Source of the DNA: a virus
UHGV virus genome: UHGV-0119633
DNA: 28,006 nt
Strand: one strand, 5' to 3'
Shown here: piece after piece, positions 5,296-22,099 of the stretch
Layout of the letters: every line of letters begins with the position of its first letter
How positions within the stretch are numbered: position 1 is the first letter of the stretch
The notes under the pieces: model-generated
The model's database searches: none
Told to the model about the DNA's origin: nothing
What the model saw: only the letters and a program-made list of their open reading frames with translations
Program-made: the position numbers and the translations under genes

Positions 5296-5538
5296 TCAAT
5301 CCTCCAATGGCTTACCAGAACAATCCACCTCGATCATCTCTGGATTAGTATGTAACGTTTTCCCAAACTCCATTAATTCGGTAAGTAATTTGTTAAACTT
5401 AATAATAAATTCTTTAAGTGCCTCCTCACGAGTTTCGCCATACCCTTCGATAGTATAAATAGTATAGTCATCAAAATCTGCGCTTACGGTATGAGACTGC
5501 CACCTACCTTTTCCATCGTCATTATGTGTTAACTTCAT
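5296..5538 (-). CDS. hypothetical protein (80 aa)
   Basis: Start set to ATG 5536-5538 (MKLTHND) which carries GGAGGATTGAGTTT spacing; track ORF extends to 5556. Confidence 0.55.
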   Translation of the reverse strand: MKLTHNDDGKGRWQSHTVSADFDDYTIYTIEGYGETREEALKEFIIKFNKLLTELMEFGKTLHTNPEMIEVDCSGKPLED

Positions 5539-5552
5539 AAACTCAATCCTCC

Positions 5553-5834
5553 TCACAACATTTCATCAGCTAATTCCAAACAAATCTCTCTGGCCTGATC
5601 CCAAATATCAATCTCAAATGACACTCTCTTATATTCTTCCGAAAGAGATGTGTATCGGTCACTAAGCTCCATGTATTCACGGTAGCTTAATGATTCTTCA
5701 CCATCTTTTAGTTTTCTATCAATCTCAATCATCTCTCTCGATACAGCACATTTCTTTTTAATACACTCTACGTACTTATCGCTCATGGCCTGCCTTACTG
5801 CGGTGTTGTATTTGGTGATACTTTCTTTACTCAT
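5553..5834 (-). CDS. hypothetical protein (93 aa)
   Basis: ORF track; junction GGAGGATTGATATTTT-ATG. Confidence 0.6.
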   Translation of the reverse strand: MSKESITKYNTAVRQAMSDKYVECIKKKCAVSREMIEIDRKLKDGEESLSYREYMELSDRYTSLSEEYKRVSFEIDIWDQAREICLELADEML

Positions 5835-5840
5835 AAAATA

Positions 5841-6098
5841 TCAATCCTCCTTCTTGATGACGTCTATGCTAGCCTGAGCTAAAACAAAACCATCCATGTA
5901 ATCAGTATCGATATCAACTGTAATTTGTTGTTTCAACTGATCGGTAAATAACCCTGCGATATCTTCTGAAATACTGTCGGCCGGTGTGTCTGATCTGTAA
6001 ATTTTATTAACACGATACTTTATAATATCTTTTGTTGGTTCTTTAAGTCTTTTTAACTCTCTTTTTAACTTTTTATTCTTGATTTTAAGATTACTCAT
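5841..6098 (-). CDS. hypothetical protein (85 aa)
   Basis: ORF track; RBS GGAGGAATGATGTTTTT-ATG. Confidence 0.6.
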   Translation of the reverse strand: MSNLKIKNKKLKRELKRLKEPTKDIIKYRVNKIYRSDTPADSISEDIAGLFTDQLKQQITVDIDTDYMDGFVLAQASIDVIKKED

Positions 6099-6105
6099 AA
6101 AAACA

Positions 6106-6306
6106 TCATTCCTCCTTACTTCTTCTAACTTCCATTTCTAACCCAGATTGTATCCAACATCTTCTACATTTACTCTCATCATAGCCAGTAACACCACAGT
6201 TACAGCGCTCAGATGATTGTAAATCATAATCGTATGGACAATTAAACTCGACTAATAAATCGAGCATCGTTTCTTTCTGATTTTCATTATCAAATATCAT
6301 TTTCAT
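6106..6306 (-). CDS. small Cys-rich protein (66 aa)
   Basis: ORF track; RBS GAGGTG; CPYDYD...CNCG...CRRC cysteine pattern. Confidence 0.5.
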   Translation of the reverse strand: MKMIFDNENQKETMLDLLVEFNCPYDYDLQSSERCNCGVTGYDESKCRRCWIQSGLEMEVRRSKEE

Positions 6307-6493
6307 CGTTTAACACACCTCGCTCCGATTCCTTCTCATATAACTTCTCCAAAGCCACTCTAAAAACATCGGCCTGTCCCATACCAGTCATCTTGCAGCA
6401 ATCCTCTAGCATTTTATTTTCTTTATCATTTATACGTATCATGTAATGTTTCTTCCTCGGGTCTTTACTATAAGGTCTCCCTCGTCTGCCCAT
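6290..6493 (-). CDS. small basic/AT-hook RHH-like protein (paralog of 3643-3813)
   Basis: ORF track 67 aa; RBS GGAGGTGA 6 nt upstream; MGRRGRPYSKDPRKKHYMIRIN...TGMGQADVFRVALEKLY. Confidence 0.55.
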   Translation of the reverse strand: MGRRGRPYSKDPRKKHYMIRINDKENKMLEDCCKMTGMGQADVFRVALEKLYEKESERGVLNDENDI

Positions 6494-6532
6494 CGGTAAT
6501 CACCTCCAATCAAATATGCTTAACTTTAAATG

Positions 6533-7272: not shown

Positions 7273-7764
7273 TTAATCGCACCACAACACAATCTGTCCA
7301 AGTTCTCTAGTTCTCTTTACATCTATAACTCTTTGATTTGAGCTTCCTCTCCATTTCAACTGTACATCTCTGAGTTTCTCGACATACGGTCCGTCTACCA
7401 AAACATCAATGTACTCCATAACCGGTAGATCTTTAACCGCTTCATATGTATATCCGGTGTAAAGCCAGATCGTTTTGTTTGGGAAAGATGCTTTTACTAT
7501 TTCGCATAGTGTCAAAATATCCCATCGGTTTCCTTCAAACAACGGATCTCCACCCGATAAAGTCAAACCGGAAATATAATCTTCATCGAGTAGATCTTCG
7601 AGTTCCTCCCAAGCATTTCCATCAAACAACAATCCATCATCAGGGTTCCAAGTAACAGGATTCTGACATCCAGGGCATTCATGATCGCAGCCGGCAACCC
7701 ATAGGACTACACGAAGACCGTCTCCGTTTTTCATATCGTCTTTCGTAATATCATGGTATCTCAT
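7273..7764 (-). CDS. nrdG: anaerobic ribonucleotide reductase activating protein (radical SAM)
   Basis: GCDHECPGC (CxxxCxxC) radical-SAM cluster plus SLSGGDP, IWLYTGY, VLVDGPYV, WRGSSNQ motifs typical of NrdG; RBS GGAGGTGA. Confidence 0.9.
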   Translation of the reverse strand: MRYHDITKDDMKNGDGLRVVLWVAGCDHECPGCQNPVTWNPDDGLLFDGNAWEELEDLLDEDYISGLTLSGGDPLFEGNRWDILTLCEIVKASFPNKTIWLYTGYTYEAVKDLPVMEYIDVLVDGPYVEKLRDVQLKWRGSSNQRVIDVKRTRELGQIVLWCD

Positions 7765-16172: not shown

Positions 16173-16288
16173 TATTTATGAAAGCCGATATCGCCGGCAA
16201 TAGCAAATAAACCAGCAGCTATAATTAATGCAGGTTCACTTGTCGCAAGATACAAAAATATTAATATTCCAGAAATTACCCATCCCAT
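16172..16288 (-). CDS. possible hydrophobic peptide (38 aa, MGWVISGILIFLYLATSEPALIIAAGLFAIAGDIGFHK)
   Basis: Hand-translated; overlaps helicase stop; weak RBS. Confidence 0.25.
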   Translation of the reverse strand: MGWVISGILIFLYLATSEPALIIAAGLFAIAGDIGFHK

Positions 16289-17562
16289 TTACACCACCGC
16301 CTTTCATTAAATTTTCGCTTTTCATGCAGAGCTCTGGATATTGCTAGGTCAATACCACTCCTACTTTTTAGATGATAGTAATATAAATCTATGAATGGAG
16401 AATTAAGTCTATCGATCCTACCCTTTGCCTGGAGTAATGTCTTGTATGAATATGTTTGCGAATAAAATACGATACAGTTTGTTTTAATGCAATTGAAACC
16501 CTCGGCTCCTGCTGAATAATTTACCAGATAAATCCACTTCTCGCTTTCTGGTATAGCATCATGCTGGTGTCCGTTATATTCTGCAATAACCACATCTTCT
16601 CCATAATATAGATTCTTCAAGATATCCAGTTCGTAGTCGAATGAATAGAACACAATCATTCTTGGATGTTGTTCAAATATCTCTAATAGTTTTATCTGGC
16701 GTGATTCATCTGAATTAACGATTCTACGTAGAACATAGCAAAGCCCAGAAGCTTGTTGGATAGGTTCTTGTTTAAAAGGATCAAAACGAGTTCTAATAGC
16801 TTGCTTGTATTTATGGATGTCGTAAGTAGCCGAAATATCAATGTCATGAGGTACCGTATGTCTCTCGAAATCCATATCAATAAGAATCCGATCTCTTAAA
16901 CGAATCAATCTCGTCTCATTACGATAACCTTCAACACTAGGATACTTTGTCCAACGAGAATATATAATGTGCTCTTGCCTGAATTCCGTTCTATTACGAA
17001 AGAATCCATTAGCCACAAATACCGTTTCGTAATCTGACCAATTATCACCTGGACTAGCTGATAGTATGATCCATTCGTTAAATTTAGCTATCTTTAAAAA
17101 AGCTTTACACCATGCGCCTTTACCAGTTAGCTTATCTTCGTCAAATATAAATACAGCATCTCGAACATCTGCATATTTCTTTATGCATTGCCAACTATCG
17201 ATAAATATTTTGTTCCCATATCTAGTCTTTTTAGTATCTGGATCAGGATATAAAAGAAACGGCATCAATTCTTCTTCCCATTCAAGATCATTTTTTTTCT
17301 TTGCTGTGCTGATAATGTATAAATCTGGTGGATTAGGTTTCATTGGTTTGTACTCTTTATTACCTATGTATCCTCCGTTTTTAGAGAAATACCAATACAA
17401 AGCAGTTCTAGATTTCCCAGAACCTGTGCCACCGTTAAGAATGCAACCGCTGAACATACGATCTATAGCCTGCTGTTGATGTGGATAGAGAAAATCCGTT
17501 TTGGTTTGAGTTTTGTTGTAAGAAATAGTATGTCGATCTTTATAGCTCACTTCCAAAATCAC
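16276..17562 (-). CDS. superfamily-2 helicase (DEAD/DEAH-like ATPase)
   Basis: Walker A GTGSGKS, Walker B FIFDEDK, motif III SASPG, motif VI QAKGRIDR; upstream YPHQQQAI; no in-frame ATG near RBS so start is GTG (17562) or TTG (17556). Confidence 0.75.
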   Translation of the reverse strand: MILEVSYKDRHTISYNKTQTKTDFLYPHQQQAIDRMFSGCILNGGTGSGKSRTALYWYFSKNGGYIGNKEYKPMKPNPPDLYIISTAKKKNDLEWEEELMPFLLYPDPDTKKTRYGNKIFIDSWQCIKKYADVRDAVFIFDEDKLTGKGAWCKAFLKIAKFNEWIILSASPGDNWSDYETVFVANGFFRNRTEFRQEHIIYSRWTKYPSVEGYRNETRLIRLRDRILIDMDFERHTVPHDIDISATYDIHKYKQAIRTRFDPFKQEPIQQASGLCYVLRRIVNSDESRQIKLLEIFEQHPRMIVFYSFDYELDILKNLYYGEDVVIAEYNGHQHDAIPESEKWIYLVNYSAGAEGFNCIKTNCIVFYSQTYSYKTLLQAKGRIDRLNSPFIDLYYYHLKSRSGIDLAISRALHEKRKFNERRWCKWDG

Positions 17563-18354: not shown

Positions 18355-18987
18355 TCAATATGGAATCTTCCACTTGCCTCCTACTTTCACAGCTCCTGGA
18401 TGCAACCCCTGTCTACACTGTTTCTGAATTGTAGCTTTTGTACAACCTAATTTTTCAGCGAGTTCTTCTGCGGTAAGCATGATTACTTTTCTTTCTTCTG
18501 TATTGTCCTTGTTAACCGCGATCGAAAGTTTTGGTATAGTTAAATTATTAAGTGCTTGTTTTAATTCATCCAAAGCCGATAATTCTTCCTCCTCTTTTTC
18601 TTCCGGTAACCATTTCTTAAATACTTCATAATAGTTACCCTTATTTCCAAGAGCCTTCTTAGCAATTGCCATAGCCAGACCTTTCTCCGGATCGTAAATA
18701 TCATCTTCTCCTGATTTTACGATAGTCTTAGTTCCATCTTCCCACAGAACTACAGTTACCGGATCATTGAAATATACTTTCTTAATTGTAATAGTGTTTT
18801 CTCTCCTCTCTGAACTTTCAACTCCAAACATTTTATTCAGAGCATGTTTAGCTAACATTTTCATTTCTTTATCAATATCCATAGCAAGTACCGGATTTAT
18901 TAAAGTATTAGACTCGTAATGACTCCATCCGACACACCCCCTACATGCATAGGTGTTTTTATTTTTACATCCATAACAACTCAACAT
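18355..18987 (-). CDS. DNA-binding protein: N-terminal Cys cluster plus C-terminal excisionase/MerR-like HTH (HTH_17-type)
   Basis: C-terminus IMLTAEELAEKLGCTKATIQKQCRQGLHPGAVKVGGKWKIP matches Xis-type HTH; N-terminus CYGC...CRGC. Confidence 0.6.
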   Translation of the reverse strand: MLSCYGCKNKNTYACRGCVGWSHYESNTLINPVLAMDIDKEMKMLAKHALNKMFGVESSERRENTITIKKVYFNDPVTVVLWEDGTKTIVKSGEDDIYDPEKGLAMAIAKKALGNKGNYYEVFKKWLPEEKEEEELSALDELKQALNNLTIPKLSIAVNKDNTEERKVIMLTAEELAEKLGCTKATIQKQCRQGLHPGAVKVGGKWKIPY

Positions 18988-19343: not shown

Positions 19344-19877
19344 TTAAAACTCAAACGGAATTTGTTCTACATCCCCGCCCTGAACAGTAACGCTCTGCAT
19401 TAGCTGTCCAGTCTCTTCGTCGTAAAATAAATCATCCAAGAAATGATCAATGTCATCTTGAACGTCCTGGTCTGCCATTCTCATAACTTCATAGCCTTCA
19501 AGACCGATATGACGACGGAGTTTCTTCAAAACAGTAGCAGTCCATCTTCTGAATTTACGAGCTTCAAGTTTCTTACTAGAATATAAAGCTTCATATATAC
19601 CGATCTCATTTACCGCCAACATCCAACGGTATCTATTTTCCCCTTTTGATCTATCCACCTTTGAAAGGTGATCAGATGATTCGTTATACCTTAAAGGTAT
19701 ATCAGATACGTCTACTCTAACTCTCATCATCATATCCGGATCTAATCTCTGAGATACTTTGAATGTTTTAAGTTCCAAAGCATTACAAATATCTTTCAGG
19801 ATAGCCCACCATTCACCATCCTGCTCGATAAATCTAATATCATATCCCATCCAATTCTCTGTTCTCATTTCGCTCAT
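19344..19877 (-). CDS. Bro-N-like domain protein (anti-repressor-type N-terminal domain)
   Basis: MGYDIRFIEQDGEWWAILKDICNALEL resembles Bro-N/KilA-N pattern; start moved to ATG 19875-19877 with AAAGGAGAA RBS. Confidence 0.5.
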   Translation of the reverse strand: MSEMRTENWMGYDIRFIEQDGEWWAILKDICNALELKTFKVSQRLDPDMMMRVRVDVSDIPLRYNESSDHLSKVDRSKGENRYRWMLAVNEIGIYEALYSSKKLEARKFRRWTATVLKKLRRHIGLEGYEVMRMADQDVQDDIDHFLDDLFYDEETGQLMQSVTVQGGDVEQIPFEF

Positions 19878-19891
19878 ATTATTCTCCTTTC

Positions 19892-20029
19892 CTACCAAAA
19901 CTTCACGTTACGAATCTTTCCACAGATCTTACACCGACATCTAAATATGCCTACTTTAAAACCGCAGTAGTCGTAATAAATATCATGCGGTTTGTCTTCG
20001 AGTTTTTCCCATTCGTGAATATGAAACAT
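19892..20029 (-). CDS. small Cys-rich protein (45 aa, MFHIHEWEKLEDKPHDIYYDYCGFKVGIFRCRCKICGK...)
   Basis: Hand-translated; RBS AAAGGAGAGG 6 nt upstream. Confidence 0.4.
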   Translation of the reverse strand: MFHIHEWEKLEDKPHDIYYDYCGFKVGIFRCRCKICGKIRNVKFW

Positions 20030-20074: not shown

Positions 20075-20103
20075 TTAGTTAAAATAAAAAAAAAGAGGCC
20101 AGA
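20075..20103 (-). terminator. U9 tract after vWA gene (weak hairpin)
   Basis: Run of nine T on minus strand immediately after stop; stem not convincing. Confidence 0.25.
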
Positions 20104-21672
20104 CTATTTAGCCAAGCCCCTTTCGTTTAGTGCATCCTCAACTGCGGAATATCGATCTGAGTTAAGTTGCTCTAATAAGCACTCTAGCGGATCGGTGTTA
20201 TTACTAAGCACCATATTGGTAATAATCGGACTAAATCCACTTACTAAAGCAACTCCTAGATCGTTCTCTTTTACTGGGATGGTTCCTGTTCTGCTACAAA
20301 TGTTCCAGAATATCAATCTAGGAAGTTTATAGCCGTACTGAGAGTAACGATCTGATATCGTATTAAACAGTGTTTTACTCGGTCTGATATTGCTCCATCT
20401 TGAACCTCCTTCGCAACTAGCACAGCTATCAAATTCCATATCTGATAAGATAAGTATGTTTTTAGGAATGTCGTTCTGTGACATGTTATTGTTGATTGCT
20501 GTTTTGAGAATAAGTTCAAATACAGCTTCGATGTTTGTGTTAGCCACCTCGTTGTATCTCCTGGCAATTTCGATCTTTTCTCTCAAAGATTCTCCGTTAC
20601 TAAGATCTACTAAACGAGGATTCATGCTGAATGTAATATATTTGTCTCTGAATTCACCAGAACTTCTTTCAGAAAAATATATTGCAAGAGCATTGGCTAC
20701 CTCTAAAGCTGTTACACTTGTTCCGCCGACAGGACAGTCCATACTACCCGATCCGTCCGCAACGCAAATTGTGTTACCGTCTCCGTTTACATAATCGGGA
20801 AGTGCTTTCCACAATTCTTCAAGTGTAATGTCATCTTTACCTTTGAGTTTATTCCCGTACCAAAATTCACCCCGATCAAAGTATTTATGTACAATATCAT
20901 GCGGGAATAGTACACCAGCATTGATTTTCGTCTCGCCTTTCTGCAAACTCGCTAAGTAACTACTTCTCCTTTCCTCATCGTTCTTCATAAACGCATTACC
21001 ATATATAATATTGGCTCTTGATGGAACCGCAGAATAATCAATCTTTGACCATTCTTTCTTACACATACTAACTTCCACAACTTTTAAATATGCACGAAGA
21101 TCCGAAAGCATTTTACGATAGGATTTCTCGTTAATAAATAACTTCTGAATCATAAGACGTGCTAGTCGTTTTGTCTCTTTAGACGAAGTGTTTGCAGACG
21201 GCATCCATTTAGCTAATAAAGAAATAGGCTCTCCTAGAGATCTCTTCCTTATATCACTTGTCAACTGTGTAGATACAATTGATACAACGTAGTCTGAAAC
21301 GTCAGTGTCTAATAAACACCATAAATCATCCCATCTACCGTATTCCGGAACCAACGGAATGATTGCCTTTGATATATCGGCATGTTTTTCGGATAGATAC
21401 TTAAGACAATATCTGAATAATCTTCTTTCTCCGAGACCTTCTCGTACATCTCTGGCATAGAACAACCACTTGATAGCAAGCTGTTTGTTTTCGTAGAATG
21501 TCTTTACAAACTTGTCTACGATTTCTCCCTCGTCCATATTTCGCATGGATGTTACTGAAAAGTTGATGTCAAGAAGTTCTTTACCAGTAGTACGGTAACC
21601 AACTGCTCCATTTTCAGTAAGGCTTGTGTTGAATTCATCATTGATTGTTTCTTTCAGATTGTTCATAAACAT
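20104..21672 (-). CDS. vWA-domain protein with MIDAS motif and TROVE/Ro60-like N-terminal region (DUF2828-like)
   Basis: 522 aa; DGSGSM (DxSxS MIDAS) followed by vWA-like layout; N-terminal GYRTTGKELLD and LAIKWLFYARDVREGLGERR resemble TROVE module; RBS AAAGGAGAAAAACT. Confidence 0.6.
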   Translation of the reverse strand: MFMNNLKETINDEFNTSLTENGAVGYRTTGKELLDINFSVTSMRNMDEGEIVDKFVKTFYENKQLAIKWLFYARDVREGLGERRLFRYCLKYLSEKHADISKAIIPLVPEYGRWDDLWCLLDTDVSDYVVSIVSTQLTSDIRKRSLGEPISLLAKWMPSANTSSKETKRLARLMIQKLFINEKSYRKMLSDLRAYLKVVEVSMCKKEWSKIDYSAVPSRANIIYGNAFMKNDEERRSSYLASLQKGETKINAGVLFPHDIVHKYFDRGEFWYGNKLKGKDDITLEELWKALPDYVNGDGNTICVADGSGSMDCPVGGTSVTALEVANALAIYFSERSSGEFRDKYITFSMNPRLVDLSNGESLREKIEIARRYNEVANTNIEAVFELILKTAINNNMSQNDIPKNILILSDMEFDSCASCEGGSRWSNIRPSKTLFNTISDRYSQYGYKLPRLIFWNICSRTGTIPVKENDLGVALVSGFSPIITNMVLSNNTDPLECLLEQLNSDRYSAVEDALNERGLAK

Positions 21673-21716
21673 AGTTTTTCTCCTTTCTTACGGTTTTTAA
21701 TCCCTTTGTTTTAAAT

Positions 21717-21870
21717 TTGCTGTTACCGCCTTAGGTCAAGATGCTTCATTCTTCTTAATTGCCAACATTAAAAATTGCTGTTAGCATCTTAAAAAAGAAA
21801 AGAGAGTAGCTGTTACAAGATACTATAATTCGCTCATCCAATTGTTTTAATTAGTTGCTGTTAGTATCTT
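21717..21870. repeat. four dispersed copies of TTGCTGTTA(G/C) in leader of vWA gene
   Basis: TTGCTGTTACC 21717, TTGCTGTTAGCATCTT 21775-21790, TAGCTGTTACAAGATACT 21806-21824, TTGCTGTTAGTATCTT 21855-21870. Confidence 0.5.
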
Positions 21871-21885
21871 TATTTAACTACTACT

Positions 21886-21917
21886 CTCTCTCATAATAGG
21901 TGTTGTAAATTTCGCGT
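21886..21917 (-). promoter_or_regulatory. conserved intergenic motif, copy L
   Basis: Minus-strand GACGCGAAATTTACAACACCTATTATGAGAGAG; heads the repeat-containing leader of the vWA gene. Confidence 0.35.
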
Positions 21918-21919
21918 CT

Positions 21920-22099
21920 CTAGACAAGTACATACAACTGTCTTCCGTTCACAACACCACAAGCCTCAAGTTTTCCATAAGCCTTCAAAGTGTCTAAACC
22001 GTACTTACCAACCAGACTCACAATATAATCCTCGTAAATTGAATCCAGTCCTTCGCAGTCTTTCTTTATGATCTCGTAAACAGATTCTTCGTATGTCAT
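21920..22099 (-). CDS. hypothetical small protein (59 aa)
   Basis: Hand-translated (MTYEESVYEIIKKDCEGLDSIYEDY...); weak RBS AAAGGGG. Confidence 0.35.
   Translation of the reverse strand: MTYEESVYEIIKKDCEGLDSIYEDYIVSLVGKYGLDTLKAYGKLEACGVVNGRQLYVLV

Follow-up and report, generated by a model that had tools for sequence, protein, structure and literature searches.

A divergent phage Ro60-like protein and a conserved stem-ACAGCAA RNA module beside its gene

Results

The gene and its surroundings

The window, by which we mean the whole stretch of viral DNA that was analysed (28,006 nucleotides), is AT-rich with ~35% GC, and nearly all of its open reading frames lie on the minus strand. The neighbours of the gene described here are typical phage accessory or early genes (Bro-N/anti-repressor, HTH protein, helicase and NrdG). 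The window is a near-identical variant of an IMG/VR contig of 96.6 kb, UViG_3300045988_045688; a near-identical phage was not found in GenBank. The nearest relatives in cellular genomes come from gut Lachnospiraceae and other Clostridia, some of them within complete chromosomes. The initial annotation had spoken of a lytic phage. As relatives sit inside complete bacterial chromosomes, the phage is not necessarily lytic.

The gene occupies positions 20104..21672 on the minus strand, starts with an ATG and encodes a product of 522 amino acids. Its description as a Ro60-like gene (DUF2828 plus DUF7788; PHROG 850) draws on the open reading frame, on Pfam, PHROG and hhalign results and on fold matches. 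A ribosome-binding site, AAGGAG, can be read 7 nt 5' of the ATG (21680..21685, minus strand). Over the stop codon there is an intrinsic-terminator-like hairpin with a T-run (20087..20113, minus strand), seen both in the sequence and in a terminator scan, which gave GGCTAAATAGTCTGGCC and then TCTTTTTTTT at the 3' end of the gene; the hairpin itself, at 20113-20097, is G+C-rich. In the protein, an N-terminal helical region of HEAT-repeat, TROVE-like character spans approximately residues 15-295 (20788..21630, minus strand). It is followed by a vWA domain with a MIDAS (residues 300-492; 20197..20775, minus strand), recognised by the Pfam models DUF7788, VWA_2 and vWA_Ro60, in which the DxSxS is encoded at 20743-20757 and the remaining residues of the site are T379 and D411. 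The 522-residue reading frame with a DGSGSM motif that had been pointed out in the initial annotation is present as described, the motif being residues 306-311 of the translation, and both of the N-terminal sequence blocks quoted there are found in the translation too.

The protein is a divergent member of the Ro60 family

The N-terminal half of the protein matches the Pfam family DUF2828 (PF11443) with 117.2 bits against a cut-off of 29, and residues 300-492 match the vWA-type family DUF7788 (PF25043) with 149 bits against a cut-off of 27.1 (E 1.5e-43). The matches to VWA_2 and vWA_Ro60 overlap that of DUF7788 and are weaker. Among the PHROGs, phrog_850, labelled 'RNA-binding protein', aligns over the full length (residues 3-509, E 2e-139), so that both Pfam models and a full-length PHROG 850 match place the protein in the DUF2828/DUF7788 family. 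Searches of NCBIfam and PADLOC with the protein found nothing. The family is large, with more than 8000 close database matches and 6951 cluster representatives at 50% identity (E<=1e-3). It is present in 711 GenBank phage records, with hosts including Escherichia, Salmonella, Mycobacterium, Listeria, Staphylococcus, Enterococcus, Bacillus, Vibrio and Campylobacter, where its members are variously labelled as DUF2828 protein, vWFA protein, RNA-binding protein or Ro-like RNA binding protein.

The relationship to Ro60 is distant. Against PDB sequences, neither phmmer nor hmmsearch with a profile of close homologues detected Ro60 above noise; TROVE chains came out on top in hmmsearch, with E values of 0.09-0.5 and over the MIDAS segment only. 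None of 24 diverse family members matched the Pfam TROVE model (PF05731) at E<=1, and vWA_Ro60 gave a weak match in nine of the 24, the best having an E value of 0.005, which is below the cut-off. The expectation that a Pfam search would return DUF2828 and vWA-type domains was thus borne out, while that of a direct TROVE match was not. Comparison of profiles is far more sensitive to the relationship. A TROVE profile was built from 29 diverse TROVE proteins; the Ro60 gene of the Thermus phage phiLo, which matches Pfam TROVE, was recovered at L199:862-2370. When the DUF2828-family profile was aligned with the TROVE profile in hhalign the probability was 99.2% (E 2.3e-19), over 422 columns (query 44-506, template 37-500) that cover both the HEAT-repeat and the vWA parts. 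The sequence blocks that had earlier suggested a TROVE-like N-terminal half align with conserved TROVE blocks in this comparison.

The predicted structure is consistent with this. An AlphaFold2 model of the protein, of moderate confidence (pLDDT 78.8, pTM 0.69), was compared with the PDB using Foldseek. The only significant matches were seven Ro60/TROVE structures, aligned over the full length with E values of 1e-7 to 2e-5 and TM scores of 0.37-0.51. The model, within its moderate confidence, fits the Ro60 arrangement of a helical-repeat ring with an inserted vWA domain. Both halves of the ring protein are therefore represented in the alignment and in the fold: it is the whole Ro60 ring that is conserved and not the vWA domain alone.

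At the level of sequence the MIDAS is complete (DxSxS...T...D). The set D306, S308, S310, T379 and D411 is invariant across 24 members of the family with identities as low as 33%, which together with the DUF7788 match substantiates the earlier reading of the C-terminal half as a vWA/MIDAS domain. These residues align with D322/S324/S326/T391/D416 of phiLo Ro60, which are invariant in the TROVE set. In the crystal of phiLo Ro60 a Ca2+ ion is coordinated by D322, S324, T391 and D416 (PMC12135203). We regard it as almost certain that the gene product is a divergent ring protein of the Ro60 family. The Ro60-like reading put forward in the initial annotation is well supported overall, though it is not new, as the databases already label the family Ro-like or RNA-binding.

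Three tandem hairpins precede the gene

The spacer of 247 nt on the 5' side of the gene (21673-21919, minus strand) contains three tandem hairpins, two intact and one truncated. They share a common design: a 7-bp stem, a 2-nt spacer, the sequence ACAGCAA, a variable loop, the 3' strand of the stem and then a G. Module 1 (21816..21870, minus strand) is intact and reads AAGAUAC-UA-ACAGCAA-loop(31 nt)-GUAUCUU-G; it was recognised from its sequence and fold, and gave the second-best match to a covariance model (E 0.099). Module 2 (21737..21790, minus strand), also intact, reads AAGAUGC-UA-ACAGCAA-loop(30 nt)-GCAUCUU-G. All seven pairs of its stem form in a fixed register, it folds with -15.9 kcal/mol and it is the best match to the covariance model (E 0.041). 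Module 3 (21690..21732, minus strand), AAGGCGG-UA-ACAGCAA-loop-CCGU, with its motif at 21723, is truncated. Its 3' strand has a 5-nt deletion in the window, while a sibling contig keeps the full CCGUCUU-G, and the folding energy is -4.1 kcal/mol in the window against -9.3 in the sibling. The covariance match of this module (R1 model, E 0.48) is to the motif only.

The covariance model was trained on loop-trimmed elements, so real loops are penalised and the E values in the window are marginal (0.04-0.5) for this reason. Nevertheless, over the whole window and both strands, the model ranks the three modules as the top three sites. The intergenic region as a whole folds better than shuffled sequences (z = -3.5). 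Four of the seven copies of TAACAGC in the window lie in the spacer, within 145 nt upstream of the gene, and a total of seven copies was never reached when the window was shuffled; all six copies of ACAGCAA are on the gene strand. We considered whether the motif could be a signal general to intergenic regions, or a promoter, and rejected this since the copies in the window cluster in one spacer. The sequence UACUAAC in module 1 recalls a spliceosomal-type branch site, which was likewise rejected because it is absent from the other copies.

Module 1 is enclosed in a candidate small RNA of ~100 nt (21791..21892, minus strand), in which a 13-bp outer stem, GAGAGAGAGUAGU.../...GCUACUCUCUUUUC, is followed by U6. 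This unit has a minimum free energy of -29.3 kcal/mol. With its putative boundaries it has a Y-RNA-like outline and looks like an independent small RNA, and just 5' of it there is a weak sigma-70-like site (TAGAGA-18-TATTAT, 21922-21893).

The modules lie 18-200 nt upstream of the gene and on the same strand, well within the ~4 kb, same-strand range taken here for Y-RNA-type partners. No Rfam family matches the module: a search of the window at E<=1 found no match, and one of 21660-21930 at E<=10 was equally empty. A known ribozyme or RAGATH-type motif was rejected on the same grounds. ARAGORN found no tRNA in the 28-kb window, and a T-loop was not found there either. The remark in the initial annotation that there is no tRNA-type T-arm nearby is therefore literally correct by ARAGORN and Rfam, but it passed over the three structured RNA modules upstream. 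These have no detectable tRNA-like domain (T arm, D arm and closed acceptor stem), and their helices do not contain the Ro60-binding signature GNCGAAN0-1G (CGAA), having stem-NN-ACAGCAA instead. The one CGAA present, within the loop of module 1, does not exceed what chance would provide for a 4-mer.

The module is conserved in sequence, pairing and strand

In 67 related viral loci there are 556 copies of ACAGCA on the gene strand compared with 150 on the opposite strand, with a peak in the 500 nt upstream. For ACAGCAA the unique instances across the loci number 250 and 19 respectively. To begin with, stems were scored with a criterion of 6 bp in a free register with G-U pairs allowed. This was uninformative, because chance stems are to be expected, and it was replaced by a fixed-register test with controls, in which the 5' strand was defined as the 7 nt at -9 to -3 of each unique ACAGCAA and a partner was sought 12-150 nt downstream. 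A perfect Watson-Crick partner (7/7) was found for 92 of the 250 instances. After shuffling this fell to three of 250, and with the register shifted by 2, 3 or 7 nt to between one and three.

The 113 best elements comprise 65 distinct stems, have loops of 14-116 nt and are followed by a G in 96 cases. In a loop-trimmed alignment of the elements, which had been pre-selected for pairing, compensatory changes are seen at all seven pairs. Cells with double changes number 176; shuffling gives 34 +/- 6.5 and sliding the register 30-47. In loci anchored on the protein, strict elements occur 136 times on the gene strand and never on the opposite strand in IMG/VR, and 64 times against once in bacterial genomes. 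A strict element is present in 51 of 62 IMG/VR loci and in 31 of 73 from bacterial genomes; these frequencies are lower bounds, since the strict definition misses variants. We consider it very probable that a real structured RNA element, conserved and genetically coupled to this protein lineage, is present in the stem-ACAGCAA module.

Occurrence of the module among phages

In phages of Firmicutes, Actinobacteria, Proteobacteria and Fusobacteria the module is found beside the homologous gene and on its strand. Three elements lie upstream of the gene and on its strand in Listeria phage LMTA-34, and three upstream in Bacillus phage Tsamsa, one of which starts directly after a consensus promoter (TTGACA-17-TATAAT). 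There are also three upstream in Sinorhizobium phage phiN3, two in Campylobacter phage F367 and one in Fusobacterium phage Fnu1. Downstream of the gene there are three in Staphylococcus phage SEP9 and three in Mycobacterium phage Samty, while in the Escherichia phages heid and Bas63 the elements are in gaps of the tRNA array just downstream. Enterococcus phage EfV12 has three elements with the exact motif and one ACAGCGA variant, all in an unannotated gap of 830 nt. Vibrio phage nt-1 and Synechococcus cyanophage B23 have weak or variant forms only. Over 11 loci from distant phages the gene strand has 32 copies of the motif, which form 27 stem elements together with the two copies of the opposite strand, and in nine of the 11 the module is close to the gene and on its strand. 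In the complete 87-kb genome of Bas63 only two elements have a perfect stem followed by G, and both are within 1.1 kb of gp130, the homologous gene. No other protein gene was found as a consistent neighbour in the annotated loci.

The same module is not found on the gene strand of any of five canonical TROVE-type phage loci (phiLo, a Xanthomonas phage, crAss001, CcrColossus and a Rhizobium phage), three of which have sub-threshold YrlA matches upstream of the Ro60 gene.

Because the elements are so often next to tRNAs, another factor might be reading them, such as a tRNA-processing or repair enzyme of host or phage, with the co-occurrence arising from shared tRNA regions. Many elements are indeed in tRNA arrays or fused to tRNA-like bodies, and RtcB is near the gene in a Listeria phage. 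A motif-first scan of viral contigs, with 14 specified bases, returned mostly chance matches and was informative only after filtering for the stem; 15 of the 22 true hairpins that it yielded had no homologue of the gene in the same, short stretch of DNA examined, and most were in long tRNA arrays, which fits an independent reader of the module. However, the window has no tRNA in its 28 kb and yet three modules directly upstream of the gene, the elements of SEP9, Fnu1 and F367 adjoin the gene with at most one tRNA nearby, and TROVE-type Ro60 loci also adjoin tRNAs but lack the module. It would therefore seem highly unlikely that the module belongs to some other factor.

Relation of the elements to Y RNAs

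In bacteria, the terminal stem of YrlA with GNCGAAN0-1G binds Ro60, and its tRNA-like domain consists of a T arm, a closed acceptor stem and a D arm (PMC4201824). Many of the ACAGCAA elements outside the window enclose a permuted tRNA-like core of this kind. Such a domain is found inside elements of heid, Bas63, Samty, EfV12, phiN3 and many metagenomic loci. In Samty, EfV12 and phiN3 matches to the Rfam YrlA family coincide with the ACAGCAA elements, scoring 34-45 bits compared with a gathering score of 69, and in the closing stem of these YrlA-like cores ACAGCAA occupies the position of GNCGAA. At some other loci it is the D-arm region of a tRNA-like body whose place the module takes, and in still others it forms an insert of ~45 nt in otherwise complete tRNA-like genes, which are found by the Rfam tRNA model and missed by ARAGORN. 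That the two Ro60 lineages share the effector end of the RNA and differ in the protein-proximal signature is what would be expected if the signature is the binding site.

Discussion

Taken together, these results lead us to propose that the protein and the small RNAs encoded next to it form a ribonucleoprotein, with the stem-ACAGCAA modules serving as Y-RNA-like partners; we put the probability of this at roughly 65%. The protein itself is a ring-type Ro60 homologue, a TROVE-like ring of HEAT repeats with an inserted, MIDAS-containing vWA domain. It is of the DUF2828/DUF7788 lineage, to which most Ro60-like proteins of phages belong. Its partners in the window would be the three tandem hairpins of the upstream spacer, with ACAGCAA single-stranded in each. 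It probably binds these RNAs through the module, and in this lineage the stem-plus-ACAGCAA would, we infer, correspond to the GNCGAA-bearing helix by which canonical Ro60 contacts its Y RNA. The variable part of the RNA may then be an effector or decoy end, of which the window would carry a minimal version. Against the proposal it can be said that the modules in the window lack a tRNA-like part and that one of them is truncated, that a part of the loci has no strict element, with weak or variant forms only in Synechococcus B23 and Vibrio nt-1, and that true hairpins also turned up in short stretches of DNA with no homologue of the gene.

The hairpins could on the other hand be elements that act in cis on the mRNA or on tRNA arrays, as a translational operator or leader, perhaps bound by the protein itself, or as processing or stability signals, and not Y-like RNAs acting in trans. 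Their placement gives some grounds for this. Only 5 nt separate the end of module 3 from the ribosome-binding site, a short-loop element precedes the start codon by ~60-70 nt in many relatives, a strict element ends within 60 nt of the start in 13 loci, and the single element of Vibrio nt-1 has the ribosome-binding site within its loop and the ATG within its 3' strand. Co-transcription with the gene is also likely, as the genes of the window are on one strand. This reading does not account well for the elements that are downstream of the gene in Staphylococcus SEP9, Mycobacterium Samty and Felixounaviruses, nor for the several tandem copies that are usually present or the complete tRNA-mimic domains, typical of stable Y RNAs, that many of them enclose. 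In both Tsamsa and cyanophage B23 the first element comes immediately after a strong promoter, and module 1 in the window sits in a unit of stem plus U-tract that resembles an independent small RNA. A purely cis-acting role appears unlikely on this evidence, but the two roles are not mutually exclusive. It is plausible, and compatible with a ribonucleoprotein, that the module nearest the ribosome-binding site is cis-regulatory, and this copy may give feedback control of the protein's own translation.

As to function, Rsr/Y RNA/PNPase, phiLo Ro60 and Bas63 gp130 serve as analogies: the target of the particle during infection would most likely be the metabolism of host RNA or tRNA, or else a nuclease of host defence. 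Speculatively, its role could be in counter-defence, as for gp130 against Ppl, in modulating a host ribonuclease, as for phiLo Ro60 and PNPase, or in tRNA-centred surveillance or decoying. A broader proposal, which we make tentatively and at a little under even odds, is that stem-NN-ACAGCAA is the recognition element of a second, DUF2828-type Ro60 lineage that predominates in phages. It would define a new class of Y-like RNA, ranging from bare hairpins through YrlA-like tRNA mimics to tRNA-like genes with the module as an insert, and together with the protein it would form a tRNA-centred particle for counter-defence or RNA surveillance in hundreds of phage genera.

What is new here is the RNA module, which is apparently undescribed, and not the reading of the protein. 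Full-text literature searches found no description of the module, though an earlier mention in the Annual Review on bacterial Ro60 or in subscription journals is possible. Ro60 and Y RNA make up a conserved but poorly understood system of RNA surveillance, and studies of phage Ro60 have so far dealt only with canonical TROVE proteins, which are rare. Among sequenced phages the DUF2828 type is about eight times commoner. A genetic phenotype (anti-Ppl) is known for it from Bas63, and previously it had no known RNA partner. An RNA signature that is conserved, easy to recognise and next to the gene supplies definite candidates for the ligand, which can be examined by binding, structural and genetic work. 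The module also accounts for unannotated gaps, and probably for some spurious small open reading frames, in the tRNA regions of phages.

Comparison with known systems

The closest characterised relative is gp130 of the Escherichia phage Bas63 (JohannRWettstein), which is of the same family with 34% identity over 501 residues (BLASTP, E 3e-88); it and the 'vWFA/RNA-binding protein' of Felixounaviruses have the same DUF2828 plus DUF7788 architecture. Bas63 has ACAGCAA stem modules just downstream of gp130, one of them with a YrlA-like core; the predicted RNAs are at about 82239-82310 and 82781-82920 of MZ501086. The Bas63 gene precedes an array of 25-plus tRNAs with the modules in the gaps of the array, whereas the window has no tRNAs and minimal hairpins only, placed upstream. 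gp130 counters the Ppl defence system, and a structural similarity to Ro60 has been reported (PMC11482910); the anti-Ppl phenotype is reported for Bas63 gp130 only (PMC11482910). The authors of that study guessed that some of the annotated tRNAs might be Y RNAs (PMC11482910), while the ACAGCAA elements of the locus are unannotated.

When expressed alone, from a plasmid or from T7, gp130 was enough to counter Ppl (PMC11482910), and so at least the anti-Ppl activity does not need phage RNAs. This raises the question of whether contacts of the vWA/MIDAS domain with other proteins account for most of what the protein does, direct binding and blocking of a host defence enzyme such as Ppl being one example, with the hairpins unrelated to its function. 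Host RNAs could however have substituted in the T7 experiment, and the conservation extends over the entire ring. The module moreover follows the lineage of the protein on the same strand and within hundreds of nucleotides in phages of at least four bacterial phyla, and is absent from TROVE-type loci. We consider it quite improbable that the hairpins have no part in what the protein does, and return to the ribonucleoprotein as the preferred reading.

The mycobacteriophage cluster L 'Ro-like RNA binding protein' (Samty gp54) is of the same DUF2828-type family, with ~32% identity. Two or three ACAGCAA modules immediately follow the gene in Samty, one with a YrlA-like core. The host of Samty is GC-rich and the modules are downstream, whereas those of the window are upstream. 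The mycobacteriophage Y RNAs described in 2014 came from phages, ET08 among them, whose annotation includes a TROVE domain (PMC4201824).

The Ro60 of Thermus phage phiLo (PDB 9kop, 9l5y), by comparison, is a canonical TROVE protein (PF05731) with 14-17% identity to the protein described here. Its Yrl1 and Yrl2 RNAs are defined by a CGAA motif (PMC12135203), and unlike the window the phiLo locus has no ACAGCAA.

Bacterial Rsr (Ro60) with YrlA/Yrn1 (RYPER; RF02553) likewise consists of a ring protein and adjacent small RNAs from the same strand. One end of these RNAs is a tRNA-like domain; at the other, the protein is bound by a terminal stem that has a conserved motif next to it. The RNAs of the window differ from YrlA in that the tRNA-like domain is absent and RF02553 is unmatched, as is the Y RNA family RF00019, and the proteins are related only at the profile-profile or fold level. 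The signature is GNCGAAN0-1G for Rsr/YrlA and stem-NN-ACAGCAA in the window. GNCGAA and ACAGCAA thus offer a natural pair of specificities, each matching a lineage to a motif, for studying how Ro60 rings read RNA.

tRNA-like genes carrying the ACAGCAA motif

Many of the loci compared hold tRNA-like genes, 110-125 nt in length, which the Rfam tRNA model matches from end to end and which contain an insert of approximately 45 nt, made up of a local hairpin followed by YAACAGCAA. Examples are found in the homologous loci L013 (2569-2682, 2689-2803 and 2808-2921), L011 (2148-2271), L006 (2064-2180) and L196 (4854-4963). The insert lies within or adjoining the anticodon arm, and in cyanophage B23 the motif is replaced by ACUGCAA. 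None of the insert-bearing genes was called by ARAGORN; in the record of cyanophage B23 one of them is labelled tRNA-Undet. In L036 and L045, the Ro60-like gene is preceded, at a distance of some 100-230 nt, by a conserved block with CCTGATGAGG, a hammerhead-like core sequence, which is positioned between tRNA-like elements. This block has no Rfam match at the gathering threshold.

Hairpin elements and overlapping features

The window and its sibling, IMG/VR contig L002, differ at hairpin 3, the truncated copy nearest the ribosome-binding site. Five nucleotides, GTCTT, present at 2981-2985 of L002 are missing from the window at 21690-21695, so that the hairpin has lost the greater part of its 3′ strand. 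The deletion is flanked by GT direct repeats and may reflect either natural variation or a mistake in assembly; over 7.5 kb the two sequences show only two further small differences.

Some predicted elements overlap small CDSs annotated as hypothetical proteins, namely F367_017 (L193, 2858-2995) and, on the strand opposite to the elements, bas63_0137/0138 of Escherichia phage Bas63 (MZ501086, 82748-83022). These CDSs are probably annotation artefacts. In the sole element of Vibrio phage nt-1 (L194, 2955-3000), the loop includes the ribosome-binding site of the Ro60-like gene and the 3′ strand includes that gene's start codon. This layout suggests a translational operator.

Genomic context

Neighbouring genes in the window, all on the minus strand, encode a Bro-N/anti-repressor-like protein (19344-19898), an HTH DNA-binding protein (18355-18987), a helicase (16276-17562) and the anaerobic ribonucleotide reductase activase NrdG (7273-7764). 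While in relatives the Ro60-like gene sits inside tRNA arrays, no tRNA genes were found anywhere in the 28-kb window. Close homologues occur within the complete chromosomes of a Clostridiales bacterium and Breznakiella (L217, AP018533.1, 1.01 Mb; L276, NZ_CP067089.2), which implies prophages, and the phage group of the window may therefore be temperate.

In Listeria phage LMTA-34 (L070) the Ro60-like gene is preceded, at a distance of approximately 1 kb, by a match to ROOL RNA (RF03087; 961-1512) that at 88.5 bits falls slightly below the gathering score of 99.1. The gene for RtcB, annotated as a ‘tRNA splicing ligase’ (5341-6509), follows 1.3 kb downstream, an arrangement with the Ro60-like gene that recalls the bacterial rsr-yrlA-rtcB operon.
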